DNA of 64,000 nucleotides from an uncultured Terracidiphilus sp. (GTDB lineage Bacteria > Acidobacteriota > Terriglobia > Terriglobales > Acidobacteriaceae), in assembly GCA_964438125.1 (NCBI GenBank), contig CAYTJN010000001.1, positions 42,641 through 106,640 on the forward strand, written 5' to 3'. The position numbers and the translations under genes are program-made. Below are positions 14,504-49,675 of this stretch, in pieces. The notes under the pieces are model-generated. The model searched no databases, was not told the DNA's origin, and worked only from the letters and a program-made list of their open reading frames with translations. Position 1 is the first letter of the stretch. Each line of letters opens with the position of its first letter.

Positions 14504-14510
14504 AGCCCTC

Positions 14511-17161: not shown

Positions 17162-17167
17162 AGGCGC

Positions 17168-18124: not shown

Positions 18125-18137
18125 AGGGGGCTCCTGT

Positions 18138-20777
18138 TTATTTCAAAACTGCTGCGGGTTCACGCAAGCGAACCTCGGCAACGCCGGAGCGCTCCAGATC
18201 GGATCGTTCGGCTTCGGATCGTTCAAGACAGGCGCGAAGTTGCGCCGCCAAAACCTGGATGTTCGGTTCGCGGAAGACTAGGTCGTGATCGCCAGGCAGT
18301 TCAAACACCTCAACTCCACCTTCCGCGAAGGGAGTCCATCCCAGATCCAGCGGCAGCCGCGGATCCGGCTGGACGGAAGCTCGGAAGAGCGTCACCTTTC
18401 CTGACCAGGGTTGCGCACGATACTTCATCGCCGCCACCCAGGTTATGTCGTCGGTGCTTTTCATAAACGATGGTACGGTGCGAAAACCGAGCACGACCGC
18501 AAGCGAGTAGATCCGGCGCAAGGTTCTTGTAAAAAACTTCTGCCACAGATACTCGATCTTTTCTGTCATCGATAGATCGGAGAGATTTCCTAGAAAGCGC
18601 TCGATTCGGCGACTGAGTTGAAGCCTCACGGAATCGTTCCGTTGCGCGACGCCGATGCAGTCACGCTGGCGGCTATCGAGCATGCCGAGTAGTTTCACCT
18701 GTTCCCCTAGTGTGCGCAACTGATGTGCGATTTCAAGGGCAATCGTGCCCCCGAATGAATATCCGAGGAAATAGTACGGACCCGTTGGTTGGATCTCCCT
18801 CATTTCCTTCAGATAGAACGCTGCCTGATCTTCTAAGCGCAGAAGTGCCGGCTGCTCAGCCAGCAGCGACTGAGCTTGAATGCCATAAATAGGGTGTTTG
18901 GTACCCACCAGCATAGCGAGTTGGTAAAAGCGAATTACGTTTCCACCAGCGCCGTGAATGATAAACAGAGGAGCTGCCGTTCCCTCCGGCTGCATCGGTA
19001 CGATTGAGGAACTGCCGTTTGCGGAAAGACGCTGCGTGACTAACTGCGCCATCCGTTCAACCGTGTGCCCTGAGAACAAAGAAGCTAGACCAAAACTGAG
19101 CGAGTAAGTCTTATTGATTCGGGAGACGATTTGCATTGCGGCCAGTGACCGCCCGCCGAGGTCAAAGAAACTGTCTCGAACGCTCAGATTTGTCGTCCCT
19201 ATTGCCGTCTCCCATATTCTGGCGATCTGTGCCTCAAGCGCGTCGCGGGGAGCCACGTGGAGTTCTCTCTGCTTTGCGGCGACATCTGTTCCCTCGATGG
19301 CGCCTGCGTTCCGATGTCCATTCGGACGGATGACTCGTTCCTGGGCTGCGCCCTCAGAAGCCCCGTCTGAAACCGCAATGAGCTGCTGGCTGCTTTCGCC
19401 TTTCGCCGCTTCCCCCGCCAGACTTTCCGCGCTCGATAGAATGGTGTCAAGAATCTGCACATAAAGCTTGAGAATCCGTTGAATCGTCGAAACGCGAAAG
19501 AATGCTGGATTGAATTCCAACTGGAGGCGGGGACCTTCAGTACGCTCCACGATGCTCAGCATCAGGTCGAACATCGTTCCTGGACTGACGGAGCGCAGGG
19601 GAAAGATCTCCAAAGAAGGCGTCTTCTGGGCCTGCATGAAGGCCTTCTGATAAATGAAGTACACCTGCAGTGAGATTTGATTTTGATCACGGCAAAAAAA
19701 CTCGTCATCGATCAGATCCTCGAAAGGTAGGTCCTGGTGAGCCAGAGCACCAAGTGTCCAGTTACGAACGCTTTCTACGATCGAGTCAAGAGTATCTTCT
19801 TTTCCGATCTTAACGCGAATGACCTGAGGGTTTGAAAAGGGACCGATCAGGTCCTCCGTTTGTTGACGGCGATTGGCGCAGGGCGTGCCGATAAGGATGT
19901 CTCCCTGCTCCGTCAGCCTGTGCAGAGTCGCGGCGTAGGCCGCGAGCAGCAACATATAAAGTGTGACCCCGCGAAGCGCGCAGAAATCCCGAGCCTGCCG
20001 AACCAGATCGGGAGCCAGCAAAAGAGTCTCGATATCGCCGTGTTCTTCGACTCCTCCTCCGTGAATATCTCGGGGGATTCGAAGAGGAGTGAAGTTCCCA
20101 CCGAGAGTTAGACGCCAGTAGGCCAAAGACTCGGTCGACTGTTCTCCCTTTCTCCATTGGTCGAGCCAGACGGCGAAATCGCCAAACTGAATGGGCAACT
20201 CCGGGAGGCAAGGGGGAAGGTTTCGCATCAGGCCGTCATAGATTGCAGCAAAGTCCCTGAGCACTACGCCGTTCGACCATCCGTCGCACACGCTGTGATG
20301 AATCGTGATCAGGAGTATGTGCTGGTCGGCTCCCATCTGTATTGCCCGAGCACAAAGCAGTGGTCCCTTCTCCATATCGATCTTGATACGGGCTTGCTCA
20401 CGAATGATTGCTTCGGCCTGGCGTTGACGGGCATCATTCGGTAGATATTGCAGGTCATCTAAATGCAGGGGCACTTCGATGGGCGAATGAATGATCTGAG
20501 ATAACTGGCCATCTACTACTTCGAAAGTCGTGCGCAGCGACTCGTGTCGACGCACCAGTTCCGTAAGCGCGGCTGCCGCTAGATCCGTAGAGAATGTTCC
20601 TCGGCAGGTCCATGCGAGGGGCATATTCAGTGAGTGGTTGCCGGGGTACATTCGATGCAGCAACCAAAAACGTGTTTGGCACGGTGTCGCCGGCATCACA
20701 AAGTCGTCCGTTGGCGTCGGTATCGCGGGGCGCTCAACTTCGTGAGGAGGAATCGACTTGTCCGGTGAGCTCTTCAT
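18138..20777 (-). CDS. NRPS terminal module C-T-TE with no adenylation domain
   Basis: The C domain has HHSVCDGWS (aa 159-167). The T domain has FFDLGGRSL (Ser544, about nt 19146-19148). The TE has GYSFGG (Ser674) and GDHD (His831). Its ATG shares one base with the upstream TGA at 20777. Confidence 0.9.
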   Translation of the reverse strand: MKSSPDKSIPPHEVERPAIPTPTDDFVMPATPCQTRFWLLHRMYPGNHSLNMPLAWTCRGTFSTDLAAAALTELVRRHESLRTTFEVVDGQLSQIIHSPIEVPLHLDDLQYLPNDARQRQAEAIIREQARIKIDMEKGPLLCARAIQMGADQHILLITIHHSVCDGWSNGVVLRDFAAIYDGLMRNLPPCLPELPIQFGDFAVWLDQWRKGEQSTESLAYWRLTLGGNFTPLRIPRDIHGGGVEEHGDIETLLLAPDLVRQARDFCALRGVTLYMLLLAAYAATLHRLTEQGDILIGTPCANRRQQTEDLIGPFSNPQVIRVKIGKEDTLDSIVESVRNWTLGALAHQDLPFEDLIDDEFFCRDQNQISLQVYFIYQKAFMQAQKTPSLEIFPLRSVSPGTMFDLMLSIVERTEGPRLQLEFNPAFFRVSTIQRILKLYVQILDTILSSAESLAGEAAKGESSQQLIAVSDGASEGAAQERVIRPNGHRNAGAIEGTDVAAKQRELHVAPRDALEAQIARIWETAIGTTNLSVRDSFFDLGGRSLAAMQIVSRINKTYSLSFGLASLFSGHTVERMAQLVTQRLSANGSSSIVPMQPEGTAAPLFIIHGAGGNVIRFYQLAMLVGTKHPIYGIQAQSLLAEQPALLRLEDQAAFYLKEMREIQPTGPYYFLGYSFGGTIALEIAHQLRTLGEQVKLLGMLDSRQRDCIGVAQRNDSVRLQLSRRIERFLGNLSDLSMTEKIEYLWQKFFTRTLRRIYSLAVVLGFRTVPSFMKSTDDITWVAAMKYRAQPWSGKVTLFRASVQPDPRLPLDLGWTPFAEGGVEVFELPGDHDLVFREPNIQVLAAQLRACLERSEAERSDLERSGVAEVRLREPAAVLK

Positions 20778-23700
20778 CAGGCATTGGTTCTCCGAAACTT
20801 TTCCCTTGAAACAGGCGCAATGACGGGTCCCGCGGGAGGCTTTTCAGTGCTTGAGATATTGGCTTCAACAAGAGCATTCGACAGACTGGCGATGGTGCGA
20901 TGCTGAAAAATCTGCGCGGGTTGGATCGGTAGTCCTTCATGCCCGGCACGGGCTGAAATCCTGAAAATAAGAAGCGAGTCAGCTCCCAACTCAAAGATGC
21001 TATCGGTGATGCTGACTCGATCGAGATTCAAAACATCAGCCCAGATTGCCACCAGCTTTTGCTGCTCAGGCGTTGTCGCAGGGGTAAACTCCCGCGTTTT
21101 AGTATGGGTTCCAAAGGTCGGTTCTGGCAAAGACCTGCGGTCGATCTTACCGTTAGCAGTGCGCGGCAAGGCGGGCAGCAAGGAGATGACAGTCGGATGC
21201 ATATACTCAGGCAGTTTCGCAGCCAGCAGGGAGTGCAGTTGCGCGTCTAGATCTATTGGCGGGGTGACCATCGCCGACTCCACCCAGGCCGCCAGCCTCA
21301 CGTCACCGGGCCTGACTTGGACTGCGGTCACCACCGCATCTCGTACCGATGGATGACTCGCAAGAGCTGCCTCTATTTCGCCCAGTTCAATCCTGAAGCC
21401 GCGTACCTTCACCTGGAAATCGGTCCGTCCCTGCAGTTCAATGTGACCGTTCTGGAGCCAGCGCGCCTGATCGCCTGTGCGGTAGATTCGTCCCTGGCCG
21501 AATGGGTTCGGCAGAAATTTTGCGGCAGTCAAATCGGGTCTCTTCCAGTAGCATCGAGCCAACCCGACCCCACCAATGTATAGCTCGCCGGTTACTCCCA
21601 ACGGTACTGGTTGCAGGCGCTCGTCAAGCACATAGAACTGGGTGTTGGCGATGGGCGGTCCAATCGGCACCGGGCCTGTCCGTTTTTCGAGCCGGGTTGC
21701 CGAAGACCAGATGGTGGTCTCCGTCGGCCCGTAAACGTTCCATACATCGTCACTGCAATCCATCAGCGAATCGGCAAGTTCGCGGGCCAGAGCCTCGCCG
21801 CCGCAGAGCACTTTGAGCCGCGGAAGCCCCTTCCAGCCTGCCTCTAGCAGAATCCGCCAACCTGCCGGCGTCGCCTGCATCACTGTGGCCTGGGTCTGCT
21901 CCAGCAGGTTGAGCAATTGGTACCCATCGACAACCTGTTCTTTGGTAGCAATTACCAGCCTGCCCCCAGTTACGAGAGGCAGAAAGAGTTCAAGCGCGGC
22001 AATGTCGAACGAAAGAGTTGTGACCGAAACTAGCGTGTCCGTAGCGTTCAAGCCAGGTTCCCGCTCCATGCTCCGAAGCAGGTTGGTCAGTGCTCCATGT
22101 TCGATGGCTACGCCCTTGGGCTGTCCCGTGGAGCCGGAGGTATAAATCACATACGCCAAAGAATCGGGCTCATTTTTCGTGACAAGGTCCGTGGTACCTT
22201 CCCTCGCCCATAATGTCCGCTCGCTGTCAAGGCAAACGACCCGCGCGCTGGCGTGCAGCCTTGAGGCCAAGTGTTCCTGGGTAAGCAGCAGGGCTACGTG
22301 CGCGTCAGAAAGTACCCATTCCAGGCGGCTGATAGGGTGGCTGGGGTCGAGGGGTAGATATGCCGCGCCCGCCTTGAGTACTCCCAATACCGCGCCCAGC
22401 ATCTGGAAGGAGCGCTCAAGGCATACGCCCACAAGAGAGCCTTCGCCAATTCCCTGGCGGCGGAGATGTCGGGCCAACCGATTACTGTATTCGTTAAGTT
22501 GTCCGTAGGTCCACCGCGCTCCGTCGCAGATTACCGCAACACGATCGGGTGAATATGTGGCTTGTTTCTCAATGGCTCGATGGACCGGTTCAAACGGCCC
22601 GAAATCCACCGCCGTGCGGTTCCACTCGTCGAGCACCAGCCTTCGTTCGCTTTCATCCAAAACCTCGAGATCCTCGACCTCGCGGCCTGCGTCCGCAGCT
22701 ATTCCGCGCAGAATCGTTGCGTACGAGGCCAGCCAGCGTTTGAGTGTTTCGCTGTCGATCAGGTCGGTATTGTAATCGCAATTCATCAGAAGATCGTCGT
22801 CGGTTTCAACGATATTCAAGAAGAGGTCCGTGTTCACGAATCTCTTCGGATTGGCATGCACTTCTGTAGCAAGCCCCTCGAAGTGGAGATTTGTTCCCAG
22901 TTTCTCCAAGTTGAACTGGACTTCAATCAATGGCAGGCGGCTTGAATCCCGCTGAATCGGCAGCTTGCGCAACAGCGTGCCGTAGGTGAATTCCTGATGG
23001 TCATAAGCATCGAGAAGTTGTCCGCGCGTGGTGGCCATGTGTTCTTTGACTGTGATGGCCCTCGATAGAACGCTCAGAATCGGGAGGAAATGCACGCAGT
23101 GTCCTACGAGGCTCGCGTCTTCATATAAGGCTTGTCCGGCAGATGAAATGCCGACCACCACTTCGGACTGCCGCGTCAGTCGATGCAGCAGAATCTGAAA
23201 CGCCGAAAGCAGGGTCACATACAGCGTGCAGCCAAGTCTGGAGCTGATTTTTTTAAGCTCCCCGGATAGCTCCGCACCCAAAGATGATTGCAGTGTCGCT
23301 CCCTTGTAGGACTTCATCGCTGGGCGCGGCCGATCGGTGGGCAGGTCCAGCACCGGTGTGTGTCCAGTGAAAACCTCTATCCAGTAACGCTCGTTTTCGG
23401 CATAAGTGCCCGCTTGAGTTTCTTCGAACTCCTTCAGCGCATAACTGCTAAAGGGAACCAGCGGCGCCAGAGCCGGTTTGGAATGGGTCTTTGATGCACT
23501 GTAGATCTTGCTCATATCCTCAAGCAGTTGGTTCGATGACCACCCGTCGAGTACGATATGATGCCCAGTCGCAAGTAGCAGTAACTCTTCGGGGGCTGTG
23601 CGGAAGAGCGTTGCCCGGAAAAGCGGGCCACGAGCCAAATCGAAGGGCTTGCATCCTTCTTCCGCGATACGCGCGTTGATGAATGCCTTACGCTCTTCGG

Positions 23701-26700
23701 CGGAAATCGCGCTCAAGTCAACGAACGCGATCTGGCCTGTGAACGCGGGTGCGATCCTCATGCATTCCTCGTCGGGATCGACCGTCGAACGAAGAGCGTC
23801 GTGGCGTGCGATGGCCGCTTCGAGCGCATGCAGCGTTTGATCCTCGCGCGCCGGACCTCGCAGGCTCAGCGTCAGCGATTCGTTAAAGGCGCAGTTGGCC
23901 TCGCTGCCTCGCGTGGCTGCCAGCCAGATCTCGCGCTGCGATTCGGTGAGGGGAACTTTGGCTGGAGCCTCGTAGGCGCTTGATGTGACGCGTGAGGCTT
24001 GATGAAATTCCGGCAACATGGCCGTGGCAGGCGCGGGGACCTCTAGAACTGCCGGAGCCGGCAACATGCCGCCACGGCGCATCTCTAGGACTGATTCGCG
24101 GAAGCCCTCAACAACGTGCGCAAAATCCTCATCGGAGTGCGCAGTGGTAAAGAAGCAGGGGTAGTTCTCGAGGATGTGAATACCCTTCTCGCGCATGTGG
24201 TAATACAGAAGGCTGCCGAAGCGGGCTTCCGTGGGCAAGTTGAATGAGAACCACGCGCCGCATGGGTGCACGCCAACATCGAGCGCGGCATCTTTAAAAA
24301 TCTCTGCCACGGCCTGCGCTGCGGAGGCCACCTTCCGACTGAGGGTTTCTTGGAGTTGCGGTCCCGCTTCCTTTAGATGGCGCAGGATGGCCTTGGCTGC
24401 TGCGAGAGCCAGCGGATGGCGCACAAACGTTCCAGCAAAGAACGTCATCCCAACCTCGGGAGCCGAGTCATCGCCGTATTGCCACGCACCGCCATCGAGC
24501 GTGTCAAGGAACTCCGCTCGTCCCGCTACCACGCCGATCGGATAGCCACCGCCCATCACTTTACCATAGGTGGCCAAATCGGCGCGAATCCCGTAGTACT
24601 CCTGTGCCCCGCCGAGAGCCACGCGGAAACCAGTCACCACTTCATCGAAGATCAGCGCTGTTCCAGATAGAGCGGTGATTCTGCGCAGTTCGCTCAGAAA
24701 CTCACGCGGCTGCACTTCTGGATGACGGCTTTGAATGGGCTCGACCAGAACTGCGGCGATCTCATTGCCATGTGCACGAACGTACTCCAGTGATGCTTGC
24801 GCTCCGTATTCCAACACCACAGTGTTGTTCGAGCCTCCCGCCATGATGCCGGGAGCAATCGGCGCGGCGCCGTGCGGTGTGGCTCGTAGCAGAACTTCGT
24901 CGAAAGTCCCGTGATAGTCACCCGTGAAGTAAACGATTTTGTCGCGAGCAGTCACCGTGCGTGCCACGCGCAGCGCCGCCATCACCGCTTCAGATCCCGT
25001 ATTGCAAAACGCGGCGCGCTCCATGCCTGTTAGCTCGCAGATCAGAGCCGCAACTTCACCTGACAGCGAACTCTGCGGGCCGATCTCAACGCCCAGATCG
25101 ATTTGGTTGTGCACGGCTTCATTCACAAAATCCGGTCCGTGCCCGAACATGATCGCGCCAAAACCGTTGACGATGTCGATGTATTCGTTGCCGTCAAGAT
25201 CCACGATCCGCGAGCCTTTTGAGCGGCAGGTCACCAACGGGTAGACCATTTCCTTCCACAAGGACCGAAAACCTGCGACGGCCCGCGGATCGGAAAGATG
25301 TGGCCGATACGCTTGCGTATACTCCTTTGACTTACCGGTGCGGCTCGTGTAGCGAGAGATGAGTGACTGAATGTACTCGCTCTGCTTCTCTGTCAGCCCG
25401 TCTTTGGTCCCCGCCTGCACTGGTTTGAATGGCCCATGCGTCTTAAGTCCGCCAGATGGTGCGACGGAAACTGCTGCGCTCCCGACGGCGTTCTTCGCAG
25501 CGGCCGGCAGAGAACTGCCTGACTGTGCGCAGGCTTGCTGCGTTTTGATGTCAGGCGCTGCTCCGCGGACCGCCGCGAGTTGCTGTTCAAAAAGCCTGGA
25601 CATTGCCTGCATCTGCGCTCGCAACAGCTCTTCGAGAGCCGAACCTGTCTCGGCGGAAAGTGGAGCGTCTGCCGCAGGAGCAACCCCGGCGATAGCTGCG
25701 GTAGGCTGCGCCTGTTCTTGAGGGAAAGCATCTGCGGGAAGAATCGCGTCCAGTCGTTCGGCGAGCATGCGAATGCTTGAGTACTGTTCCACGATCTGAC
25801 GGAAGGTCACCTTCACGCCGAAGCGGCGCTGCACCGCCTGCGTCGCCTGGGTCAGAAAAAGAGAATCGAATCCCAGCTCCAGAAACGATGTGTCGAAGTA
25901 TTCCGAGCCGATGGCAATCCCGCTTAATTCCTCAAAGAGCCTTGCAACAACAGGCTGAAGCCTAAGACTGCGTTCAACTGCGATTCCAACTACATCAAGG
26001 GTCATCTTTCCTTCTCCCCCAATTTGTACTTCAGTCTCTCGGGTCGCAATGTTCGATTGGAGGGGAGCGTTGGCCGCAATCGCGCCGGCCGCCACGTATG
26101 CGGGTGGCTCGATCCAATGCTTCTTGCGTTCGAATGGATAAGTGGGAAGTGAAATGCGGCGCCTACGTTCGTGGTTCCAAACACGCTCCCAATCCGGCTG
26201 AATACCGGTTGTCCATAGCCGGCCCAGGGCCTCCAGCATGGTTCCCGAATCACCCGCTTCCCCGGTACGCTCCGGCATGGATGCCACGATCGGCACGGCG
26301 CGATTGCCGCGCTGCTGTCGCGCAAGGGTCGTCAGCGACTGCCCCGGCCCCACTTCCAGCAGCACAGCTTCGGGCAGGCCGAGCAAGAGCTTCACGGCGT
26401 CGGCGAAACGCACAGGCTTCCGGCAATGATCCCGCCAATAACGCGGCGTGATCGCTTCTTCCGGTTTGATCCAAGTACCAGTCACTCCGGAGACGTATGG
26501 AATCGTGGGCGCATGAAGAGCGACTCGCCGAACTTCATCCTCGAAGGCATCGAGCATCGGGTCCATCATTGCGGAATGGAAGGCGTGCGAAGTTCGCAAG
26601 CGTTTGCATTCGACCTGCTCCTCTCGCAACAGCTTCTCCAATTCCTCAATGGCTTCCAGCGGTCCCGACGCGACACTCAGTGACGAGCTGTTTACTGCTG

Positions 26701-28777
26701 CAATCGAAAGCTGTTCGCCGATAAAAGACCTGATCTGCTCATCGCCTAAGCGCACCGAGAGCATCGCCCCGCGCTCCATCTGCTGCATTAACCTGCCGCG
26801 CACTGCGACCAGCCTAAGCCCATCTTCTCGCGACATCACATCTGCAGCGACGGCGGCAACAAATTCCCCGATGCTATGCCCAGTCATGGCCTTCGGCGTG
26901 ACGCCCCACGCCATCCATTGCCTGACCATCGCGAGTTCAGTGATGAATAGTGCAGGTTGCGCCAATCGCGTTTCAGTTAATGCCTCCGCGCAGGCATTTG
27001 AGTCCGCACCTGCCGGAAAAAGAATGTTGCGCAGGTCGAGATCCAGCAATGGGCGCAGGATTTCTGCGCATTCATCGATTTCTTTCCGATAAACGGCCTC
27101 AGTCTCATAGAGTGCGCGACCCATCCCTGGATACTGCGCGCCCTGCCCGGTGAAAAGAAAGATCGGTTGGGGCCTGGCGAGTACGCTCGCGGACCTCTGA
27201 ATCCGCCGGTTCGCAGGGTCTGCAAGCGTCCGCGCAGCTTCGTCCACACTCGAGCATACGACCGATGCGCGATAATCGAATCCGTGTCGGCCTGTCTGGA
27301 GCGTATAGGAAACGTCCGCTAGATTCGATTTGGGATGTTCTTGCAGATAGCGGCCGAGGTTACCAAGCGCCGCATCAATCGCGGTCTCAGAACGCGCGGA
27401 CACCGTGAGCAACTGGGTTGGGCGCACGGAAGGTTCCAGTGAAACATGTGGCCCTTCTTCGAGCACCACATGTGCGTTCACGCCTCCGACGCCAAAGGCG
27501 CTCACGCCGGCCATGCGCGGGCCATCGGACTTCCATGGCGAAGCTTCGCCGCTCACAAGAAAAGGTGTGTTCGCAAAATCGATCCGCGGGTTTGGGCGGC
27601 GGAAATTGGCCACCGGCGGGATAGTTTTATGCCGCATAGCGAGCACGGTTTTGATCAACCCGCTGACTCCTGCCGCTGCGTCTAGGTGGCCGATGTTTGC
27701 TTTGGTGCTGCCCAGTGCGCAGAAACCATTTTGCTGCGTCGTTTGGCGAAAGGCCCTAGTCAGCGCGGCAACCTCGACGGGATCGCCCAGCGGCGTTGCG
27801 GTGCCGTGCGCTTCAACAAACGTAATGGCGTCCGCGCTGATTCCTGCCATTGCGTGGGCGGCTGCGATAGCCGCAGCTTGTCCATCCACGCCGGGGGCCA
27901 TGTAGCTGACCTTCGCTGCGCCATCGTTGGAGACCGCAAAGCCGCGAATGACGGCGTCGATGCGGTCGCCGTCGTTAAGCGCATCTTCCAGTCGCTTCAG
28001 CAGCACCACCCCCACACCGTGTCCAAACACAGTGCCTGTCGCGTCGGCGTCGAATGGGCGGCAATGACCGTCGCGCGATCCCATGCTGCCTTCCTGAAAG
28101 ACATGGCCGCGATGTTGTGGGAACGTCACCGACACGCCGCCGGCAAGCGCCATGTCGCACTGGTACGTTAAAAGATTCTGGCACGCCTGACAGATCGCGA
28201 CCAGCGATGTTGCGCACGCGCCTTGTACCGTCATGCATGGCCCACGCAGGTTCAGCTTGTAGGCCACGCGGGAACAGAGAAAGTCCTTATCGTTGCCCAG
28301 CGTCGTCTGAAGTTCGCCGACCTGGTAGTTGCCCGTGAGTTCGTCGATAAACTCCCGGGTTGCGCTCAGGTTTGCCAGCAAATAGGTGTTCAGGCTGCAT
28401 CCGCCAAAGATGCCGATCTGCCCAGCAAATTGCGCCGGATCATATCCGCCATCTTCGAGCGCATTCCAGCAAGTCTCCAGAAACAACCGGTGCTGCGGGT
28501 CTAGAACATCAGCCTCACGCGGTGGTATGCCGAAGAAGCCGGCATCGAACATCTCGGCACCTTCGAGAACACCGTGAGCTGCCACGTAGTCGGCGCCGAA
28601 CTCCAAAGACGCATGGTTTTTGGCTTCCAATTCCTCGCGAGAGAATTGTGTGATCGTATCTTTGCCTGCCGCGACATTTGCCCAAAAGATATCGAGATTC
28701 GGCGCGCCGGGAAACTTGCCCGACATGCCGATGATTGCAACGCCTTCGAGACGGTTTTCGTTTTCAGGAGTGCTCAT
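20777..28777 (-). CDS. hybrid PKS-NRPS: KS-AT-ACP-aminotransferase(class III PLP)-C-A-T
   Basis: The true start is ATG 28777 (MSTPENENRLEGVAIIGMSGKFPGA). Approximate domain coordinates follow. KS is at 27458-28750 (GACATS Cys, EAHGTAT, NIGHLD). AT is at 26273-27166 (GHSIGE, HAFH). ACP is at 25748-26005 (LGFDSL). AMT is at 24083-25405 (GSEAVMAALRVAR, FDEVVTGFR, ATYGKVMGGG). C is at 22658-23965 (HHIVLDGWS). A is at 21128-22600 (YTSGSTGQPKGV, NVYGPTETT, YRTGD, GKIDRR). T is at 20858-21085 (LGADSL). Confidence 0.95.
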   Translation of the reverse strand: MSTPENENRLEGVAIIGMSGKFPGAPNLDIFWANVAAGKDTITQFSREELEAKNHASLEFGADYVAAHGVLEGAEMFDAGFFGIPPREADVLDPQHRLFLETCWNALEDGGYDPAQFAGQIGIFGGCSLNTYLLANLSATREFIDELTGNYQVGELQTTLGNDKDFLCSRVAYKLNLRGPCMTVQGACATSLVAICQACQNLLTYQCDMALAGGVSVTFPQHRGHVFQEGSMGSRDGHCRPFDADATGTVFGHGVGVVLLKRLEDALNDGDRIDAVIRGFAVSNDGAAKVSYMAPGVDGQAAAIAAAHAMAGISADAITFVEAHGTATPLGDPVEVAALTRAFRQTTQQNGFCALGSTKANIGHLDAAAGVSGLIKTVLAMRHKTIPPVANFRRPNPRIDFANTPFLVSGEASPWKSDGPRMAGVSAFGVGGVNAHVVLEEGPHVSLEPSVRPTQLLTVSARSETAIDAALGNLGRYLQEHPKSNLADVSYTLQTGRHGFDYRASVVCSSVDEAARTLADPANRRIQRSASVLARPQPIFLFTGQGAQYPGMGRALYETEAVYRKEIDECAEILRPLLDLDLRNILFPAGADSNACAEALTETRLAQPALFITELAMVRQWMAWGVTPKAMTGHSIGEFVAAVAADVMSREDGLRLVAVRGRLMQQMERGAMLSVRLGDEQIRSFIGEQLSIAAVNSSSLSVASGPLEAIEELEKLLREEQVECKRLRTSHAFHSAMMDPMLDAFEDEVRRVALHAPTIPYVSGVTGTWIKPEEAITPRYWRDHCRKPVRFADAVKLLLGLPEAVLLEVGPGQSLTTLARQQRGNRAVPIVASMPERTGEAGDSGTMLEALGRLWTTGIQPDWERVWNHERRRRISLPTYPFERKKHWIEPPAYVAAGAIAANAPLQSNIATRETEVQIGGEGKMTLDVVGIAVERSLRLQPVVARLFEELSGIAIGSEYFDTSFLELGFDSLFLTQATQAVQRRFGVKVTFRQIVEQYSSIRMLAERLDAILPADAFPQEQAQPTAAIAGVAPAADAPLSAETGSALEELLRAQMQAMSRLFEQQLAAVRGAAPDIKTQQACAQSGSSLPAAAKNAVGSAAVSVAPSGGLKTHGPFKPVQAGTKDGLTEKQSEYIQSLISRYTSRTGKSKEYTQAYRPHLSDPRAVAGFRSLWKEMVYPLVTCRSKGSRIVDLDGNEYIDIVNGFGAIMFGHGPDFVNEAVHNQIDLGVEIGPQSSLSGEVAALICELTGMERAAFCNTGSEAVMAALRVARTVTARDKIVYFTGDYHGTFDEVLLRATPHGAAPIAPGIMAGGSNNTVVLEYGAQASLEYVRAHGNEIAAVLVEPIQSRHPEVQPREFLSELRRITALSGTALIFDEVVTGFRVALGGAQEYYGIRADLATYGKVMGGGYPIGVVAGRAEFLDTLDGGAWQYGDDSAPEVGMTFFAGTFVRHPLALAAAKAILRHLKEAGPQLQETLSRKVASAAQAVAEIFKDAALDVGVHPCGAWFSFNLPTEARFGSLLYYHMREKGIHILENYPCFFTTAHSDEDFAHVVEGFRESVLEMRRGGMLPAPAVLEVPAPATAMLPEFHQASRVTSSAYEAPAKVPLTESQREIWLAATRGSEANCAFNESLTLSLRGPAREDQTLHALEAAIARHDALRSTVDPDEECMRIAPAFTGQIAFVDLSAISAEERKAFINARIAEEGCKPFDLARGPLFRATLFRTAPEELLLLATGHHIVLDGWSSNQLLEDMSKIYSASKTHSKPALAPLVPFSSYALKEFEETQAGTYAENERYWIEVFTGHTPVLDLPTDRPRPAMKSYKGATLQSSLGAELSGELKKISSRLGCTLYVTLLSAFQILLHRLTRQSEVVVGISSAGQALYEDASLVGHCVHFLPILSVLSRAITVKEHMATTRGQLLDAYDHQEFTYGTLLRKLPIQRDSSRLPLIEVQFNLEKLGTNLHFEGLATEVHANPKRFVNTDLFLNIVETDDDLLMNCDYNTDLIDSETLKRWLASYATILRGIAADAGREVEDLEVLDESERRLVLDEWNRTAVDFGPFEPVHRAIEKQATYSPDRVAVICDGARWTYGQLNEYSNRLARHLRRQGIGEGSLVGVCLERSFQMLGAVLGVLKAGAAYLPLDPSHPISRLEWVLSDAHVALLLTQEHLASRLHASARVVCLDSERTLWAREGTTDLVTKNEPDSLAYVIYTSGSTGQPKGVAIEHGALTNLLRSMEREPGLNATDTLVSVTTLSFDIAALELFLPLVTGGRLVIATKEQVVDGYQLLNLLEQTQATVMQATPAGWRILLEAGWKGLPRLKVLCGGEALARELADSLMDCSDDVWNVYGPTETTIWSSATRLEKRTGPVPIGPPIANTQFYVLDERLQPVPLGVTGELYIGGVGLARCYWKRPDLTAAKFLPNPFGQGRIYRTGDQARWLQNGHIELQGRTDFQVKVRGFRIELGEIEAALASHPSVRDAVVTAVQVRPGDVRLAAWVESAMVTPPIDLDAQLHSLLAAKLPEYMHPTVISLLPALPRTANGKIDRRSLPEPTFGTHTKTREFTPATTPEQQKLVAIWADVLNLDRVSITDSIFELGADSLLIFRISARAGHEGLPIQPAQIFQHRTIASLSNALVEANISSTEKPPAGPVIAPVSREKFRRTNA

Positions 28778-30765
28778 CAGATTGCCTTCCTGACCGCGCG
28801 GGCTTGTGCAAACGCCGCTCGCTGCTTCTGCGCCTGATCCTGTGTTCGATCTTGCGTTGAATGCACCGACTCGTGATCCGGGTCCAAACGTCCAAGCTTT
28901 TCTGAAAGAGCGCGGACCGTAGTGTAGGCAAATAGATCCGCGACGGGAATGCTTTTGCCGAGCATGGTTTGCAGTTTCGCGTGCAGCGATACCAGAAGCA
29001 CCGAGTTGCCACCAATGTCGAAGAAGTTGTCGTCCAGTCCGACATAATCCGCGCCCAGCACGCTTCGCCAGGCGCCGGCCACTTCCTGTTGCAGATCCGT
29101 GCCTGAAGTCTGCGCTCCCGTGCGAGCCGATCCGGCAGTCGGTGACGGTAGCCGCGCATAATCGACTTTGCCGTGAGGGGTCAGCGGAAAAGCCGCGACC
29201 GATAGATACACGGACGGCATCATCCATGGTGGAAGTTTCTGGCGCAGATGCTCGCTCAACTCGCGTACAGAAAGTGCAGCGTCCTCATGCGCCACGTAGT
29301 ACGCTGCCAGCCTCTTCATTCCTGCGTCATCTTTGTGAGCAACCACTCGCGCCTCTCGGATCTGCGGGTGCCCCGCCAGGGCGGCTTCGATCTCGCCCAG
29401 TTCAATTCGAAAACCTTGAATCTTCACCTGATCGTCGCCCCGTCCCAGATACTCCACTTCACCATCGGGCAGCAGGCGAGCCAAGTCACCGGATCTGTAC
29501 ATCCGCTCATTCGGAATTCTGGAAAATGGATCGGGAACAAAACGCTCGGCGTTCAGTTCGGGCCGGTTCAAGTATCCGCGCGCCACGCCCGCCCCGCCTA
29601 CACAGATCTCGCCTGTTTCGCCCGTCCGCACAGGTTGCCGGTCGTCGCCGAGAAGGTAAAGCCGCATATCGGGGATCGGCAAGCCAATCACGCTGCGCAC
29701 GCCGTCGGCGGCATCGGCCGCGGTGACCTCCCGATAGGTTACGTGCACAGTTGTTTCTGTAATTCCGTACATGTTCACCAATAGTGGATGCTGGTCGCCG
29801 TGCGTTTCAAACCATGGCCGCAGGGTTTTGAAGTTCAACGCCTCGCCGCCAAAAATCACTAGCCGGAGAGACAGTTCCGGCGAACTGGGCGCCTGGTCGA
29901 CAGCCATAAGCTGATAGAAAGCCGAAGGAGTCTGGTTCAGCACCGTAACCTGTTCCTTCGCCAATAACTCACGAAATCCCTCAGGCGAGCGCGAAACAGT
30001 GAAGGGAACGATTACCAGCCTTCCGCCGTGCAGCAGACAACCCCATATCTCCCATACTGAGAAGTCGAATGCAAGAGAATGGAAGAGTGTCCAAACATCG
30101 AGTTCGTTGAAGTGAAACCATTCCGCAGTCGCACTAAACAAGCGCGCAACGTTGCTCTGCGTCACCATCACGCCCTTGGGTTTTCCAGTCGATCCTGATG
30201 TGTAGATCACGTACGCCAGATTATCAACGCCCCATTCGGAGTTGATTGCGGGAAATTCTGAATAAGAGTTCCCTGTCGTCTCCCGATCGAGGCAAATCAC
30301 GCGGGCATCATGCCGAGGCAAACCATCGAGAAGATGCTTTTCGGTCAGCAATACCAGTGGCTGGGCATCATCGAGGATCAGGGCGACGCGCTCGCTCGGA
30401 TAGGCCGGATCCAGAGGCAGATATGCTCCTCCGGCCTTGAGAACGGCGACCAGGGCGACAATCGCAAGCGCAGATCTCTCCAGATAAACTCCAACCAGTG
30501 AATCGGGACCGACGCCCAATTTCCGCAGTCGGAGCGCCAACTGGTTGGCCTGCGATTGAAGCTCGCGGTAAGTCATCTGCTGATCGCCAAAAGTCACTGC
30601 CGTTCGGCTGGCGTGTCTCGCTGCGACTTCATCGAAGATTTGCGATAGTGGTTTCAGAGCGGCAGAACCGGCGCGCTCAACTGCTCCGGGTGTTGCTGCC
30701 GGAGCGGTGTCGCACGGAAAATAGGCTGTAGGCATTACGTTCATAGGCAACGCGCATTCGAACAA
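28777..30765 (-). CDS. stand-alone NRPS A-T didomain, predicted Thr-activating
   Basis: Motifs are LAYVIYTSGSTGKPKGV, FDFSVWE, NMYGITETTVHV, YRSGD, GRGDDQVKIQGFRIELGEIE and HGKVDY, with T-domain FFDIGGNSV. The by-eye Stachelhaus code is DFWNIGMVHK. The start is uncertain: TTG 30765, or ATG 30744 or 30735. Confidence 0.9.
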   Translation of the reverse strand: MFECALPMNVMPTAYFPCDTAPAATPGAVERAGSAALKPLSQIFDEVAARHASRTAVTFGDQQMTYRELQSQANQLALRLRKLGVGPDSLVGVYLERSALAIVALVAVLKAGGAYLPLDPAYPSERVALILDDAQPLVLLTEKHLLDGLPRHDARVICLDRETTGNSYSEFPAINSEWGVDNLAYVIYTSGSTGKPKGVMVTQSNVARLFSATAEWFHFNELDVWTLFHSLAFDFSVWEIWGCLLHGGRLVIVPFTVSRSPEGFRELLAKEQVTVLNQTPSAFYQLMAVDQAPSSPELSLRLVIFGGEALNFKTLRPWFETHGDQHPLLVNMYGITETTVHVTYREVTAADAADGVRSVIGLPIPDMRLYLLGDDRQPVRTGETGEICVGGAGVARGYLNRPELNAERFVPDPFSRIPNERMYRSGDLARLLPDGEVEYLGRGDDQVKIQGFRIELGEIEAALAGHPQIREARVVAHKDDAGMKRLAAYYVAHEDAALSVRELSEHLRQKLPPWMMPSVYLSVAAFPLTPHGKVDYARLPSPTAGSARTGAQTSGTDLQQEVAGAWRSVLGADYVGLDDNFFDIGGNSVLLVSLHAKLQTMLGKSIPVADLFAYTTVRALSEKLGRLDPDHESVHSTQDRTQDQAQKQRAAFAQARAVRKAI

Positions 30766-30824
30766 GAGCTTAAGTGGTTATTGGATTGGAGTGCGACGGA
30801 CGCAAACCCCGGTAAGGATGAATA

Positions 30825-32234
30825 CTAGCTGACGATCGACACTCGCAGAGCCATGCCGAATCCCAGGAGAACCAGAAAAAACCCAGTGGCCAGCAGATCC
30901 TGCCGCCATGTTGATATGCCTTCGCGGCTGGCTCCTGTAACGGTCACGAAATAGAGTGGCAGGTCGCCGGCAGCTACTGCAATCACCGCGCCGAACATTC
31001 CAAAGAAATGAAAGGCAAGCGGGATGGCAATAATTACTGCGATGCAGTAGGACGCATTGCCGATCGCCGCGTACTGCGACTTGCCGAGAGAAAACAGCGC
31101 GGGCATGGTCGTCGCATACATTAGTGTGTGCCACAATCCAAGAGCTAAAATCGGCACCATCCACGCGGCAGCATGATAGCGGCGGTCGTACATGTGAGTA
31201 ACCAGGAAGCCGCCGAGATGCACCATCAGGCACAGCATCGCCGCTCCCGCCAGAAGCGTGTAAATGCGGTACCGCAAAAACACTCCACGGAATTCAGCGA
31301 TCGGCAAATGGGACATCTTCGCGATGAATGGATAACCGACTCTCTGTGCGAATGCATTGATGATCGATCGCGGCATCTCGGAAACTGAAAATGCGATGCC
31401 GTACACACCAAGCAGGCTGAAACTGATCAGCTTTCCAAGAATCAGCCGGTCTGCCTGTGACGCAAAGAAGTAGAACGCGGTCGCAAGCAAAATCCATTTG
31501 CCAAAGTGAACCAGGCCATGCACGCTCTCCTTGTCCCACCGGAAGGAATTCCGAATGCCTGGAATCAACCGCTGGTAAAAGCTGAGCGCCAGTCGGTATG
31601 CCGTACTCAATGCCGCTCCCAGTACCAGCGCCCACACCGACCTGTAAACCAGCGCGCATCCGACCGTGACCAGGAGCGAGACCCCCTGCGTCGTGATGTC
31701 GAGAAGGAAGAGCCTGCGCACGCCCATGTGCCGCGACATCGAAAGAAGATTCGTACTGTTGAAAGCGCCAATGATGGTATTGATGCCAAGCGCCGGCAAT
31801 AATAATAAAAGTCGCGGTTCATGGTACATCAGCGACATGGGCCACGCTAAAGCGAGTGAAACGACAAAAATCCCCAGGCCGCGAAGCACCTGCAAAGTCC
31901 ACGCAGTGTTCAGAAGGACGGGATCATCTCCACGCGGGCTTTGAATCACGCTGGGTCCCAACCCAATATCGGAGATAAGACTAATTCCGACGATGAGCGT
32001 CGAGACAAGCGTCATCAGCCCGAAGGCTTCCGGCATCAACAGGCGGGTAAGAACCATGCTGTTGACGACGCGTAGCGCCATCGAACACCCGTAGTCGGTC
32101 ACAGTCCAGAACGTCGCCCGCACTGCCGTCGATTCCAGCGCTTTTCGGGCGTGCTTCTCCGCTCCGGCACTATCTTCAGGCGACAACTCCGGTTCCTCGA
32201 CATCGGGCATTGATAATATCGTGTCTATTGGCAT
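30825..32234 (-). CDS. Wzx-type oligosaccharide flippase (MOP/PST family)
   Basis: The 469-aa protein has about 12 TM segments. Its N-terminal region RATFWTVTDYGCSMALRVVNSMVLTRLLMPEAFGLM is typical of polysaccharide flippases. Confidence 0.8.
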   Translation of the reverse strand: MPIDTILSMPDVEEPELSPEDSAGAEKHARKALESTAVRATFWTVTDYGCSMALRVVNSMVLTRLLMPEAFGLMTLVSTLIVGISLISDIGLGPSVIQSPRGDDPVLLNTAWTLQVLRGLGIFVVSLALAWPMSLMYHEPRLLLLLPALGINTIIGAFNSTNLLSMSRHMGVRRLFLLDITTQGVSLLVTVGCALVYRSVWALVLGAALSTAYRLALSFYQRLIPGIRNSFRWDKESVHGLVHFGKWILLATAFYFFASQADRLILGKLISFSLLGVYGIAFSVSEMPRSIINAFAQRVGYPFIAKMSHLPIAEFRGVFLRYRIYTLLAGAAMLCLMVHLGGFLVTHMYDRRYHAAAWMVPILALGLWHTLMYATTMPALFSLGKSQYAAIGNASYCIAVIIAIPLAFHFFGMFGAVIAVAAGDLPLYFVTVTGASREGISTWRQDLLATGFFLVLLGFGMALRVSIVS

Positions 32235-33092: not shown

Positions 33093-33110
33093 GCGGCGAA
33101 AGATGGGTGA

Positions 33111-34997: not shown

Positions 34998-35912
34998 CTA
35001 AATTCCGTAGCGCGAGCGCAGCCCCTTTCGTGCCGCGTGCGCAGCCTCGTACGGCCTGCCGAATGCAAGGTTTTTCAGGCGATCGAGGGCTGGTGATCGA
35101 CCAGGCTCGGTCGGATGCAAACCGAACTTCCGCGCGTAGTAATTGGCTCGGAACGCCCCAATGCTTTCGTTCCGTACCCGTTTGAAGTTGATGCTAACGG
35201 AAACTGAAACATTGTTTGAATTTTTTACCCAATGAGGAAAAGTCGCCGGGTTAAAGACGCCCAACCCCGGAGATAGCTCGTAGCGCCACTGCCCTTCTGA
35301 TAATTCTTCGTGCCATCTGGGCGCCCGCAGATTCCCCGTCCAGTATCGTTCCATCTCTTCAGCAGTGAGGATTTCAGGATCGCGAGCATTGTAAAGGTAT
35401 ATCAATTTGCTCCCCTGTACTTGCGCCAGAAAATTGGCTTCCCCATCAAGATGGTAAGGTGTGACACGGTTGGGCGAGGTAATGAAGATAGTGAGAATGG
35501 GATCGTGATAATGCCGGCGCAAATCGATTCCCGTTAGCTCCGAAAGCTCCGAAATGAAGCTCTCAAGAGCAGCGCGATACTCCGGCTCCTCGTGAATGCG
35601 CTTGAGAATAATCCAGTTCTTGTCCTCCCCGATCCGTTCTAAGGCCTGCACCAGGTTCATGTCAGTTGGCTTGTTGCCGAAGTAGCCGTTTACAACCGGT
35701 TCGCCGCTTTCATAATGGCTCTTATGTTCGCGCTTCTTCATGCAGCGGTCGGCCAACTTCAGAAGAGCCCGCATTTCAAAGATCTCCATCGTATGCAGCG
35801 AGTGGCGGAACTGAAAAGGGAGGGAGTCGAAGCTCGCGGCGAATAGTTTGCATGTCTTCGCGTCGCGGGGAAAAATCTCCGCCTTCGCGACTGGGTGGAA
35901 TGCTGTAGCCAT
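34998..35912 (-). CDS. JmjC/cupin_8 (FIH-like) Fe(II)/2-oxoglutarate oxygenase, paralog 1
   Basis: The HxD core is VTPYHLDGEANFLAQVQGSK. The distal His region is FPHWVKNSNNVSVSVSINF. ATG 35912 is preceded by GGAGGAAACC, whereas the longer ORF would overlap rfbB. Confidence 0.7.
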   Translation of the reverse strand: MATAFHPVAKAEIFPRDAKTCKLFAASFDSLPFQFRHSLHTMEIFEMRALLKLADRCMKKREHKSHYESGEPVVNGYFGNKPTDMNLVQALERIGEDKNWIILKRIHEEPEYRAALESFISELSELTGIDLRRHYHDPILTIFITSPNRVTPYHLDGEANFLAQVQGSKLIYLYNARDPEILTAEEMERYWTGNLRAPRWHEELSEGQWRYELSPGLGVFNPATFPHWVKNSNNVSVSVSINFKRVRNESIGAFRANYYARKFGLHPTEPGRSPALDRLKNLAFGRPYEAAHAARKGLRSRYGI

Positions 35913-38982: not shown

Positions 38983-39735
38983 TTGAATCGAACTACGTCC
39001 TGGCTTCAGTTCCGCTCAGCGAAGGGGACTTCACGTTTGCGCTTGTTCTGTTTTCCCCATGCGGGAGGTGGGGCAACGGCATATCGCTCATGGCTCGCCG
39101 AACTGCCGCCCTTCGTGGAGTTATGTCCGGTTCTTCTGCCCGGCCGGGAGACGCGCCTTTCAGAGTCTCCTTACCTCCAATTCGATTCACTGGTGGAGGA
39201 TTTGGATCGAGAACTACGACCATGGATCGACATTCCCTACGCCATCTTCGGGCACAGCATGGGAGCGTTGCTGGCGTTCGAGTGGGCGCGTCGATTGAAG
39301 CGGTATGCATCTTCCCAACCTGTCTGGCTCTTTGTCTCCGGCCGTCGCGCACCGGATTTACCGGGCGATAGTGCACTTTTGCATCCGCTCCCCGATCGTG
39401 AATTCATTAACGAACTGACTCGCGTCTACAACGGAATACCTCAGGAGCTACTGCAGAGCGATGAACTCATGGAAGTTCTTCTGCCGATTTTGCGCGCCGA
39501 TATTGCGGTGGTCGAGAGTTATCGTTTTTTGGAGGATGAGCCGCTCAACTGCCCTATTACGGTCTTCTCAGGAATAGAGGACTCAAGCGTCAGTTGGGAT
39601 CAGTTGATAGCCTGGAAACGTCATACGAAACGTCGCTTCGCGATGCACGTCTTTCCCGGAGGCCATTTCTTTCCCCACGGACCTATGTTGCAATCGGTCT
39701 CCGCAAACCTTGAAGAGTGGGATCACCTGCACTGA
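38983..39735 (+). CDS. type II (editing) thioesterase
   Basis: The 250-aa protein has LFCFPHAGGGA, GHSMGALLAFEWA and a C-terminal FPGGHFF. It starts at TTG and is the only plus-strand gene inside the locus. Confidence 0.85.
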   Translation: MNRTTSWLQFRSAKGTSRLRLFCFPHAGGGATAYRSWLAELPPFVELCPVLLPGRETRLSESPYLQFDSLVEDLDRELRPWIDIPYAIFGHSMGALLAFEWARRLKRYASSQPVWLFVSGRRAPDLPGDSALLHPLPDREFINELTRVYNGIPQELLQSDELMEVLLPILRADIAVVESYRFLEDEPLNCPITVFSGIEDSSVSWDQLIAWKRHTKRRFAMHVFPGGHFFPHGPMLQSVSANLEEWDHLH

Positions 39736-42362: not shown

Positions 42363-42441
42363 CGATTGACAACGTCCTTTGCCCGGGATAGCCTTCCTCC
42401 CGAAGTTATCCTCATGAAGCGGGTTTGTTTTGATCTCGAAG

Positions 42442-49456: not shown

Positions 49457-49675
49457 GTCACCCCCATCTGAGTGCTGACAATTCTGTTTTTTCTTTGTCG
49501 ATCGAATCAGGACAGGTGCAAGAGCGAGTAGCTCCCGACACCAAAGCAACAACAGCAAAGTGAAGCCAATGGAACAATTCTCGGTTCTGAGCGCTGAAAA
49601 AATCTGTTCTGTTTTGTCCGGTGGAAAAAGGGAAGGTGCTAGAGCGCATCGCTCCGAGCACTACAGTTACACCAA

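Follow-up and report, generated by a model that had tools for sequence, protein, structure and literature searches.

Polyketide synthase (PKS) modules that contain an aminotransferase (AMT) domain are known for making the beta-amino fatty acids of lipopeptides and toxins. In the iturin family of Bacillus, for example, MycA, ItuA and BmyA combine a PKS module carrying an in-line class III aminotransferase with a following condensation-adenylation-thiolation (C-A-T) module, such that a beta-keto thioester is turned into a beta-amino acyl unit which then enters the peptide. Here we describe a trio of genes from an uncultured Terracidiphilus sp., found in a stretch of 64,000 nucleotides (contig CAYTJN010000001.1, positions 42,641 to 106,640; this whole stretch is referred to as the window, and coordinates are given within it). 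The trio encodes a hybrid line of nonribosomal peptide synthetase (NRPS) and PKS modules with the domain string A-T / KS-AT-ACP-AMT-C-A-T / C-T-TE (KS, ketosynthase; AT, acyltransferase; ACP, acyl carrier protein; TE, thioesterase). It is an amino-acid-primed AMT module, a member of a widespread family without a characterised member in the literature found, and it is unusually integrated in a polysaccharide operon.

The trio resembles the iturin enzymes in having an AMT-bearing PKS module directly before C-A-T. However, while the iturin enzymes receive a fatty-acid primer through an acyl ligase and an ACP and yield lipopeptides, the trio would receive an amino-acid primer from its A-T protein, which relatives carry fused to the KS; the predicted unit is a beta,gamma-diamino acid and the predicted product is small and polar. 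McyE and NdaF, of microcystin and nodularin biosynthesis, share the string KS-AT-ACP-AMT-C-A-T, but the polyketide that McyE receives is long (the Adda precursor) and comes from PKS modules that precede it in a large multi-enzyme line, whereas the trio has no upstream PKS. The fatty-acyl or polyketide priming of the MycA/McyE type is not what Pfam scans and the fused A-T-KS relatives point to here. A third point of comparison is offered by SyrB1/SyrE (syringomycin) and Ramo17 (ramoplanin), in which a stand-alone Thr-activating A-T occurs and a terminal A-less module is charged in trans. The window likewise combines a stand-alone Thr A-T with an A-less terminal module (C-T-TE); on the other hand, fusion proteins identify the A-T as the loading module of the KS, and Gly is the likelier load of the A-less module.

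Carrier-protein chemistry has also been met in polysaccharide loci. RkpA of Sinorhizobium and WcbR of Burkholderia pseudomallei are PKS megasynthases whose genes are embedded in polysaccharide export loci; they differ from the trio in being similar to PKS or fatty acid synthases, in that they are thought to make a lipid part, in their separate RkpG/WcbT-type enzyme and in having no NRPS modules or AMT domain. The exosortase-A-associated set of acyl-CoA ligase, ACP and hydrolases 1 and 2 (TIGR03098-03101) shares with our locus the occurrence of carrier-protein chemistry and alpha/beta hydrolases among exopolysaccharide (EPS) genes, but the hydrolase in the window is of another type (PAF-AH_p_II) and there is a TE in cis. 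In Collimonas arenae Cal35, one secreted compound depends on two loci, a PKS/NRPS cluster with an AMT domain (cpl, for 'carenaemin') and, apart from it, a Wzy-pathway locus, and the authors propose that a peptide core is attached to a lipid-linked sugar unit and then flipped (PMC8313283). The cpl line resembles the trio as a hybrid PKS/NRPS with KS/AT and aminotransferase domains; it differs in its module string and residues (predicted Gln, Ser and Leu, plus a second PKS), and its product has no solved structure. Moreover, the two Collimonas loci lie far apart on the chromosome, whereas in the window both gene sets are interleaved in one operon.

The three genes are minus-strand open reading frames (ORFs) of 662, 2666 (counted from the ATG at 28777) and 879 amino acids, referred to below as the A-T, hybrid and C-T-TE genes (Table 1). 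Their domain string had been proposed in a first-pass annotation, and it was borne out by Pfam matches, all of them far over the curated cut-offs (for the hybrid protein in the order ketoacyl-synt/Acyl_transf_1/PP-binding/Aminotran_3/Condensation/AMP-binding/PP-binding). It was also borne out by the catalytic motifs, which are complete, from the cysteine and two histidines of the KS, through the serines of the ACP and T domains and the lysine of the AMT, to the HHxxxDG motif in each C domain and the GxSxG of the TE. In the hybrid protein, the Cys-His-His triad of the KS lies in GACATS (residues 186-191), EAHGT (322-326) and NIGH (361-364), with a ketoacyl-synt match at E = 3.5e-69. The AMT domain (PF00202, residues 1180-1537, E = 1.2e-49) stands between the ACP, whose serine is in GFDSL (969-973), and the C domain, and the lysine of its TYGKV motif is invariant across the alignment. 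Both parts of the malonyl-type signature previously reported for the AT were located, GHSIGE at residues 633-638 and HAFH at 731-734, and the CTGATGA overlaps of stop and start codons at 28777 and 20777 were read on the minus strand at both junctions. The starts of two genes call for comment: the hybrid ORF, listed as 20777..29227 (minus strand), truly begins at the ATG at 28777, and the TTG from which the 662-residue A-T protein is listed is probably too far upstream, one of the ATGs a few codons downstream (MNVMPTAY...) being the probable true start; its orthologs have 645-659 residues and align only from about residue 33-40. With over 100 full-length orthologs on record, multidomain genes as large and as conserved as these cannot be regarded as a chance feature.

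Gene order and overlapping stop codons do not prove biochemical order. Evidence on this point comes from two relatives, P0066 (4467 residues) and P0120 (4478 residues), in which A-T-KS-AT-T-AMT-C-A-T-C-... lies within one polypeptide. The concatenated window proteins are colinear with residues 44-3946 of P0066 at 46.9% identity over 3803 columns, spanning both junctions, and likewise colinear with P0120; the first junction maps to the T-KS linker, where the window reads '...AI' followed by 'MSTPE' and P0066 reads '...GIMSSAE'. Among solved structures, the KS is most similar to the KSs of hybrid NRPS/PKS enzymes (7zma, 593 bits; 4wky, 529; 8xjy/8xjz, 476), whereas the KSs of DEBS and MAS reach only about 280 bits; 8xjz also contains a 'Peptide synthetase' chain, to which the A-T protein has one of its highest-scoring matches. 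Pfam scans of the window genes found no fatty-acyl ligase, no starter condensation domain or other condensation domain besides those of the trio, and no further PKS gene. Given the fused relatives, the hybrid-type KS and the lack of an acyl ligase or further PKS in the window, it is well supported, at the level of sequence, that the three genes form one colinear, amino-acid-primed hybrid NRPS-PKS line, and the order first proposed for it (Thr, C2 extension, beta-amino formation, Gly, a further condensation and TE release) gains from the same evidence.

The stand-alone Thr A-T and the terminal C-T-TE without an A domain, both present here as in syringomycin biosynthesis, could in principle be read as an order of the SyrB1/SyrE type, in which the A-T charges the T domain of C-T-TE with Thr and the KS is acyl-primed from elsewhere, giving acyl-(beta-amino)-Gly-Thr. 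We consider this very improbable. In relatives, the A-T is fused in frame to the N-terminus of the KS, and the window junction maps onto that very linker; the third-module A domains of relatives are Gly-like, not Thr; and the KS resembles the hybrid type. Pfam scans of the window genes showed no acyl ligase, starter C domain, halogenase or SyrC-like shuttle, and no SyrC or SyrB2 homolog occurs among the partner genes described below. The fused A-T-KS relatives and the Gly-like codes of their third A domains were our main reasons for rejecting a syringomycin-like trans-loading of Thr.

Under the colinear order, the chemistry can be predicted from the specificity codes. We took the ten code residues by alignment to GrsA-PheA, using a reference fragment identical to residues 231-526 of 1AMU, and obtained DFWNIGMVHK (Thr) for the stand-alone A domain and DILQLGVIWK (Gly-like) for the in-line one, letter for letter as in the first-pass annotation. 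Both codes are kept in the three cultured orthologs examined (Acidicapsa, Granulicella rosea and Tunturiibacter), and the Gly-type code is kept in nearly all of the more than 100 hybrid orthologs. Thr on the first T domain (T1) would thus be condensed by the KS with malonyl-ACP, and the AMT would convert the 3-keto group to an amine, yielding 3,4-diamino-5-hydroxyhexanoyl-ACP. The first C domain of the line (C2) would couple this unit to Gly on T2, C3 would pass the chain to a second Gly on T3, and the TE would free a polar pseudo-tripeptide, (3,4-diamino-5-hydroxyhexanoyl)-Gly-Gly, of approximately C10H20N4O5 and 276 Da before tailoring. Two JmjC-like oxygenases encoded nearby probably hydroxylate the peptide. 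Our confidence in the predicted chemistry of the line is fairly high as far as the second residue and moderate for Gly as the third. An amino-acid-primed AMT module of this kind would give vicinal (beta,gamma) diamino acids, a building block that we could not tie to any described pathway.

The prediction of the third residue, for which the first-pass annotation had named no substrate, deserves closer attention. The C-T-TE protein has no A domain, and since only about 60 residues separate C from T, this domain is absent and not decayed. In the G. rosea ortholog, the third protein reads C-A-T-TE and the third A domain has the Gly-like code DILALGVIWK; further Gly-like third A domains occur in related loci L007, L024, L045, L051, L055, L057, L077 and L079, and among the related loci listed the third A domain, where there is one, is often Gly-like. 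On the strength of these relatives, the in-line A domain probably acts in trans to load Gly onto T3, which has no A domain of its own, and a second Gly is the most likely contribution of the A-less third module.

A-less third modules recur in distant lineages (L008, Bryobacterales; L037, Ideonella; L058). Their retention there, together with relatives that end in C-T or C-TE, would also fit a scheme in which T3 is never charged and C3-T3-TE off-loads the chain onto a nucleophile other than an amino acid, such as an amino sugar or the hydroxyl of a lipid-linked glycan, or cyclises it, leaving diamino-acyl-Gly on a glycan or a small lactam; the TE-less relatives (Variovorax, Xenophilus and others), in which two alpha/beta hydrolases follow, hint at such off-loading by transfer. 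However, the T3 serine and the TE nucleophile are intact, and the orthologous and related third modules with a Gly-like A domain argue for ordinary elongation, which makes the uncharged T3 an improbable alternative to the second Gly. Two variants of the third protein may be recorded here. In L010, L012, L019, L022, L023, L028 and L030 (Acidobacteriota and other metagenome-assembled genomes), it reads C-C-T-TE (about 1370 residues), with a second condensation-like domain in the place of the G. rosea A domain. In the TE-less C-T relatives L036, L041, L043, L064, L066, L055 and L079 (Variovorax, Xenophilus, Polyangiaceae and others), the best NCBIfam matches of the two hydrolases are exosortase-A-associated hydrolases 1 and 2, with scores far below the cut-offs (71 vs 168 bits and 96 vs 203).

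The family to which the trio belongs is large. Over 100 proteins are full-length orthologs of the hybrid protein and share 56-86% identity with it; those with a genus name belong to Terracidiphilus, Acidicapsa, Tunturiibacter, Granulicella and Edaphobacter, and the placement in Acidobacteriaceae near Terracidiphilus is based on named relatives at 76-81%. A genome scan seeded on an alignment of the AMT domain listed at least 80 loci, the best at 59-63% identity and none of them a close ortholog; the contexts of close orthologs therefore came from exact-protein look-ups and from a metagenome scan with the GT8-like gene described below. Among the matches listed, the layouts [A-T][KS-AT-T-AMT-C-A-T][C-(A)-T-TE], [A-T-KS-AT-T-AMT][C-A-T-C-(A)-T] or fused forms occur in at least eight phyla, with hosts in Acidobacteriota, Verrucomicrobiota, Alpha-, Beta- and Gammaproteobacteria, Cyanobacteria, Bacteroidota, Planctomycetota, Myxococcota and Methylomirabilota, and same-layout loci are usually accompanied by JmjC-like oxygenases. 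In the same list, the loading code varies, Val-like being most frequent, followed by Thr and Pro-like, and the code after the AMT is mostly Gly-like. Literature on the domain string, on hybrids with aminotransferase domains, on vicinal diamines and on acidobacterial NRPS clusters gave no characterised match to the trio, and McyE was the only hit for the string. The earlier claim that no characterised pathway has this exact string thus stands as far as this literature goes; the string itself, on the other hand, is far from singular. The family is abundant in Acidobacteriaceae, which are dominant in acidic soils and peat, and one solved product would annotate hundreds of clusters across phyla; cultured carriers exist in Acidicapsa dinghuensis, G. 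rosea and Tunturiibacter spp.

What the first-pass annotation had read as a stand-alone line is actually embedded in a polysaccharide operon together with conserved accessory enzymes. The trio lies inside a 46-kb co-directional minus-strand array that runs from 49558 (a NusG paralog) to 3498, with gaps mostly of 156 nt or less, the exceptions being 348 nt after the NusG gene and 1030 nt that hold a type II TE gene. From its head, the array encodes NusG-like, WecG-STAS, a family 2 glycosyltransferase (GT2; other families are named likewise), Wza, Wzc-like, a PAF-AH-type hydrolase, a cupin, the type II TE (plus strand) and Bac_transf. There follow a GDP-mannose-dehydratase-like protein, a second cupin, a 605-residue membrane protein, a hexapeptide transferase, Wzx, A-T, hybrid, C-T-TE and a 318-residue protein, and finally GT4, GT4, GT2, a hexapeptide transferase, further glycosyltransferases and a set of ACP, FkbH-like and MBOAT genes. 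As a polysaccharide locus it is complete for an initiating transferase, a flippase of the multidrug/oligosaccharidyl-lipid/polysaccharide (MOP) family, a Wza/Wzc pair and several glycosyltransferases (GT2/GT4, WecG). No Wzy or O-antigen-ligase model gave a match, the candidates being the 605-residue protein (weak PMT_2) and a 491-residue protein without a match; the former was also considered as a conserved GT-C mannosyltransferase and rejected, being not homologous to the PMT-type genes beside the cassettes in L005 and L007. The gaps of 13 nt to the GT8-like gene and 59 nt to Wzx leave no room for separate control of the trio, and promoters and terminators predicted in 16500-33500 were no more frequent than in shuffled sequence, with none in the gaps on either side of the trio. 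The trio is arranged as if co-transcribed with the flippase, GT8-like, two GT4 and GT2 genes.

Table 1. Features of the trio and of the surrounding operon (window coordinates; functions other than conserved domains are predicted)
Feature	Position	Strand	Details
A-T gene	28777..30765	-	A ~29167-30636, T ~28900-29085, Ser within GGNS at 29002-29013; Pfam AMP-binding/PP-binding
Hybrid gene	20777..28777	-	KS 27602-28747, AT 26201-27163, ACP Ser 25859-25873, class III aminotransferase 24167-25240
Hybrid gene, distal half		-	C 22640-23959 (HHIVLDG), A 21146-22570, T 20870-21061
C-T-TE gene	18138..20777	-	C 19419-20696 (HHSVCDG), T 19038-19229, TE 18198-18971 (GYSFGG); Pfam Condensation/PP-binding/Thioesterase
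Junction 1	28774..28780	-	CTGATGA; A-T stop TGA and hybrid start ATG share the A at 28777
Junction 2	20774..20780	-	CTGATGA; hybrid stop and C-T-TE start share the A at 20777
GT8-like protein, 318 aa	17168..18124	-	13 nt downstream of the TE gene
JmjC/Cupin_8-like Fe(II)/2-oxoglutarate oxygenase	34998..35912	-	real gene 304 aa
Second cupin paralog, same family	39806..40813	-	
Alpha/beta hydrolase, PAF-AH_p_II family	40929..42515	-	GHSFGG; hydrophobic N-terminal region
Type II thioesterase	38983..39735	+	only plus-strand gene of the array; homologs adjoin orthologous clusters
MOP-family flippase (Wzx-like)	30825..32234	-	59 nt upstream of A-T; Polysacc_synt_3 E = 2.5e-44
Initiating polyprenyl-phosphate sugar transferase	37228..38775	-	CoA_binding_3 + Bac_transf (E = 1e-68)
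Wzc-like chain-length/tyrosine-kinase protein	42442-44667	-	sub-threshold NCBIfam scores only
Wza-like exporter	44645-45814	-	Poly_export
GT4	15875-17161	-	order of this and the next three genes kept downstream of the GT8-like gene
GT4	14511-15863	-	
GT2	13499-14560	-	
Hexapeptide acyltransferase	12852-13643	-	
Polytopic membrane protein, 605 aa	33111..34928	-	weak PMT_2 match; homolog beside Wzx in L089
NusG-family paralog	48860..49558	-	first gene of the array

Several of the accessory proteins could be classified by predicted structure. The 318-residue protein has no Pfam or NCBIfam match, but its AlphaFold2 model (predicted local distance difference test score, pLDDT, of 82) has a GT-A fold whose top Foldseek matches are XXYLT1 (E = 8e-10), LARGE1, ABO transferases and glycogenin, and its D114-P-D116 (DxD) motif is invariant; the model suggests a GT8/GT6-like retaining glycosyltransferase, a relative at fold level only. 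The cupins score 27.2 bits against Pfam Cupin_8, just under the cut-off of 27.4, and have a metal triad HxD...H in which H154-x-D156 is invariant and H227 at least 90% conserved. Sequence searches of the cupins against the PDB were near noise and the predicted fold alone was informative: the nearest folds to the model (pLDDT 89) are the peptide-residue hydroxylases NO66, MINA53, YcfD and FIH, which supports a double-stranded beta-helix of the JmjC type for the cupins, oxygenases that probably hydroxylate the peptide. The PAF-AH-type hydrolase is probably membrane-anchored through its hydrophobic N-terminus, and hydrolases of this type stand beside the assembly line in 12 related loci, some of them without polysaccharide genes.

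Several related loci keep this arrangement. Acidicapsa, G. rosea and the metagenomic locus L088 have in common the block Wzx / A-T / hybrid / C-(A)-T-TE / GT8-like / GT4, and Wzx is kept next to A-T in the first two and in metagenomic orthologs. Acidicapsa dinghuensis reads Wza, GT2, ..., a phosphopantetheinyl transferase (PPTase), type II TE, Wzx, A-T, hybrid, cupin, hydrolase, C-T-TE, cupin, GT8-like, GT4, such that a cupin and a hydrolase intervene between the hybrid and C-T-TE genes; G. rosea reads Wzx, A-T, hybrid, C-A-T-TE, GT8-like, GT4, GT4, GT2, hexapeptide transferase; and L088 and L089 have the same block with hydrolase, type II TE and cupins just upstream. In the metagenome scan, seeded on the GT8-like gene, we counted 66 loci with enough upstream sequence, and in 45 of them the TE end lies directly before the GT8-like gene. 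The 12.6-kb trio is present or absent in the same locus (L124, L138, L140, L146, L155, L159, L163 and L164 as compared with L091-L123), and its insertion point in the metagenomic loci is always between Wzx and the GT8-like gene. Loci without the cassette are 71-75% (Wzx) and 68-76% (GT8-like) identical to the window, and they have no cupin, hydrolase or type II TE between Wzc and Wzx. For the GT8-like protein, loci with the cassette are 60-87% identical to the window, such that the two states interleave, and this suggests that the cassette has been repeatedly gained or lost.

Beyond close orthologs, we clustered all flanking ORFs of 88 related loci into partner families, with hydrolase and methyltransferase labels taken from NCBIfam scans of cluster representatives. 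The most frequent partners were an Sfp-type PPTase (26 loci), cupins (23-24, in one or two copies), the PAF-AH-type hydrolase (12) and a TIGR04325-type methyltransferase (11), followed by Wza (10), an exosortase-A hydrolase 1-related protein (10), Wzx (9), Wzc (9), Bac_transf (7) and an exosortase-A hydrolase 2-related protein (7). At least one polysaccharide-type gene occurs in 41 of the 88 loci, and a Wza, Wzc, Wzx, Bac_transf, WecG, Wzy-like or glycanase gene lies within 10 kb in 24, which come from at least seven phyla. Genes of the export, initiation and polymerase type make up a fraction of a percent of a genome, and their occurrence among the approximately ten flanking genes of 27% of the loci looks enriched.

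Taken together, these observations can be read to mean that the line, the oxygenases, the hydrolase and the type II TE form an optional cassette of a conserved Acidobacteriaceae Wzx/Wza/Wzc locus, and that the peptide is joined to, or glycosylated by, products of that locus, a reading to which we give even weight for and against. A link to a glycan is favoured by the presence of both gene sets in one operon, by the interleaving of cassette and polysaccharide genes at three places in the window, by the survival of the association through rearrangements in L002, L089 and L169, by its recurrence across phyla and by the Collimonas precedent. That the cassette is optional follows from the loci that lack it and from its stand-alone occurrence in Tunturiibacter and Granulicella sp. 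S190. In a narrower and more tentative version, possible rather than probable in our judgement, a beta,gamma-diamino-acyl-Gly-Gly unit made by the line would be attached to, or serve as the base of, an exported polysaccharide or lipid-linked oligosaccharide, and the NRPS-PKS line would be an optional decorating module of Wzx/Wzy assembly, shared by the related cassettes beside export genes in Verrucomicrobiota, Proteobacteria, Planctomycetota, Bacteroidota and Myxococcota. If a peptide on an exported glycan were indeed the product, thiotemplate lines and Wzx/Wzy assembly, which are normally treated as separate, would become linked, and part of the variability of acidobacterial EPS would be explained.

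A number of points weigh against the preferred explanation as a whole. The joining of peptide and glycan is its least certain step, plausible and unproven: no peptide-sugar joining enzyme was identified at the locus, and the candidate reactions are speculative, namely that the GT8-like enzyme might O-glycosylate the Thr-derived hydroxyl, that a free amine might be amide-linked to a uronic acid, or that the TE or the hydrolase might transfer the peptide to a sugar nucleophile. About 20 of the 66 metagenomic loci have Wzx and not the cassette before the GT8-like gene (e.g., Wza-Wzc-Wzx-GT8-like-GT4-GT4-GT2), and in Tunturiibacter and Granulicella sp. S190 the cassette consists of PPTase, A-T, hybrid, C-T-TE, hydrolase and cupin, and the 10 kb around it contain no polysaccharide gene; either part can thus occur on its own. 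The window has no PPTase and no MbtH-like gene, and the apparent enrichment of export genes is without a matched random control. Finally, the chemistry of the line is a prediction, no family member having a known product, and the trans-loading of T3 is read from relatives.

The same observations leave room for a product that is a small molecule free of any glycan, such as a peptide that binds metal or acts as a signal, with the Wzx-like MOP protein as its exporter and the position in the operon reflecting a permissive insertion site or shared regulation. This would account for the cassette of NRPS trio, hydrolase, cupin and PPTase standing alone in Tunturiibacter and Granulicella sp. S190, for polysaccharide loci without the cassette, and for the lack of any polysaccharide gene within 10 kb in over half of the relatives' loci from other phyla. 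The neighbours in G. rosea (Fur, a Zip transporter and a TonB-type receptor) also fit, and, judged by its chemistry, a molecule that combines Gly-Gly with a vicinal diamine would be a good ligand of Cu or Ni. We nonetheless regard a free metabolite as less likely: the cassette genes are interleaved at three positions and do not form one inserted block, their association with polysaccharide genes outlasts rearrangements, the link to export and initiation genes recurs in unrelated phyla, and the narrow gaps on either side of the trio offer no space for control of its own. A further observation on the stand-alone cassettes is that an operon of DUF692 (MbnB_TglH_ChrH), DUF2063 (HvfC_N) and small ORFs lies beside them in Tunturiibacter and Granulicella sp. 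S190 (L005, 2028-4724; L090, 1780-3895), where a DoxX gene and genes for an ECF sigma factor and its anti-sigma factor are also present; the fused relative L007 likewise has a DUF692 gene nearby (1-1207). This adjacency would suit a metal-binding product, but it may be a coincidence as well as a metal-related link.

Apart from the fate of the peptide, for which joining to glycan products remains the reading we prefer, the operon and its surroundings hold several features worth recording. The NusG-family paralog that heads the array may be an operon-specific antiterminator, and just beyond it, on the opposite strand, lie a PAS-GAF sigma-54 activator and a Crp-family regulator (52224-55702). At 47123-48511 (minus strand), a protein of the WecG/TagA glycosyltransferase family ends in a fused STAS domain, an unusual pairing of a glycosyltransferase with an anti-sigma-antagonist-like domain. 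The end of the operon (3498-8364, minus strand) holds a second carrier-protein set, made up of an 81-residue ACP (8119-8364, GWDSL), an FkbH/HAD-IIIC protein (6194-8122, TIGR01686 E = 9e-89), an MBOAT protein (4596-6146) and a 362-residue protein without a family match, which looks like a Dlt-like system that O-acylates an extracytoplasmic polymer from a carrier protein. Lastly, a plus-strand ORF at 6-3236 encodes a 1076-residue protein with 11 CHB_HEX_C_1/Fn3_assoc repeats; near its C-terminus, a hydrophobic stretch and an Arg/Lys-rich patch are followed by a lipobox-like LGGCGS and approximately 70 more residues, which may be a sorting signal or the result of two genes read as one ORF.

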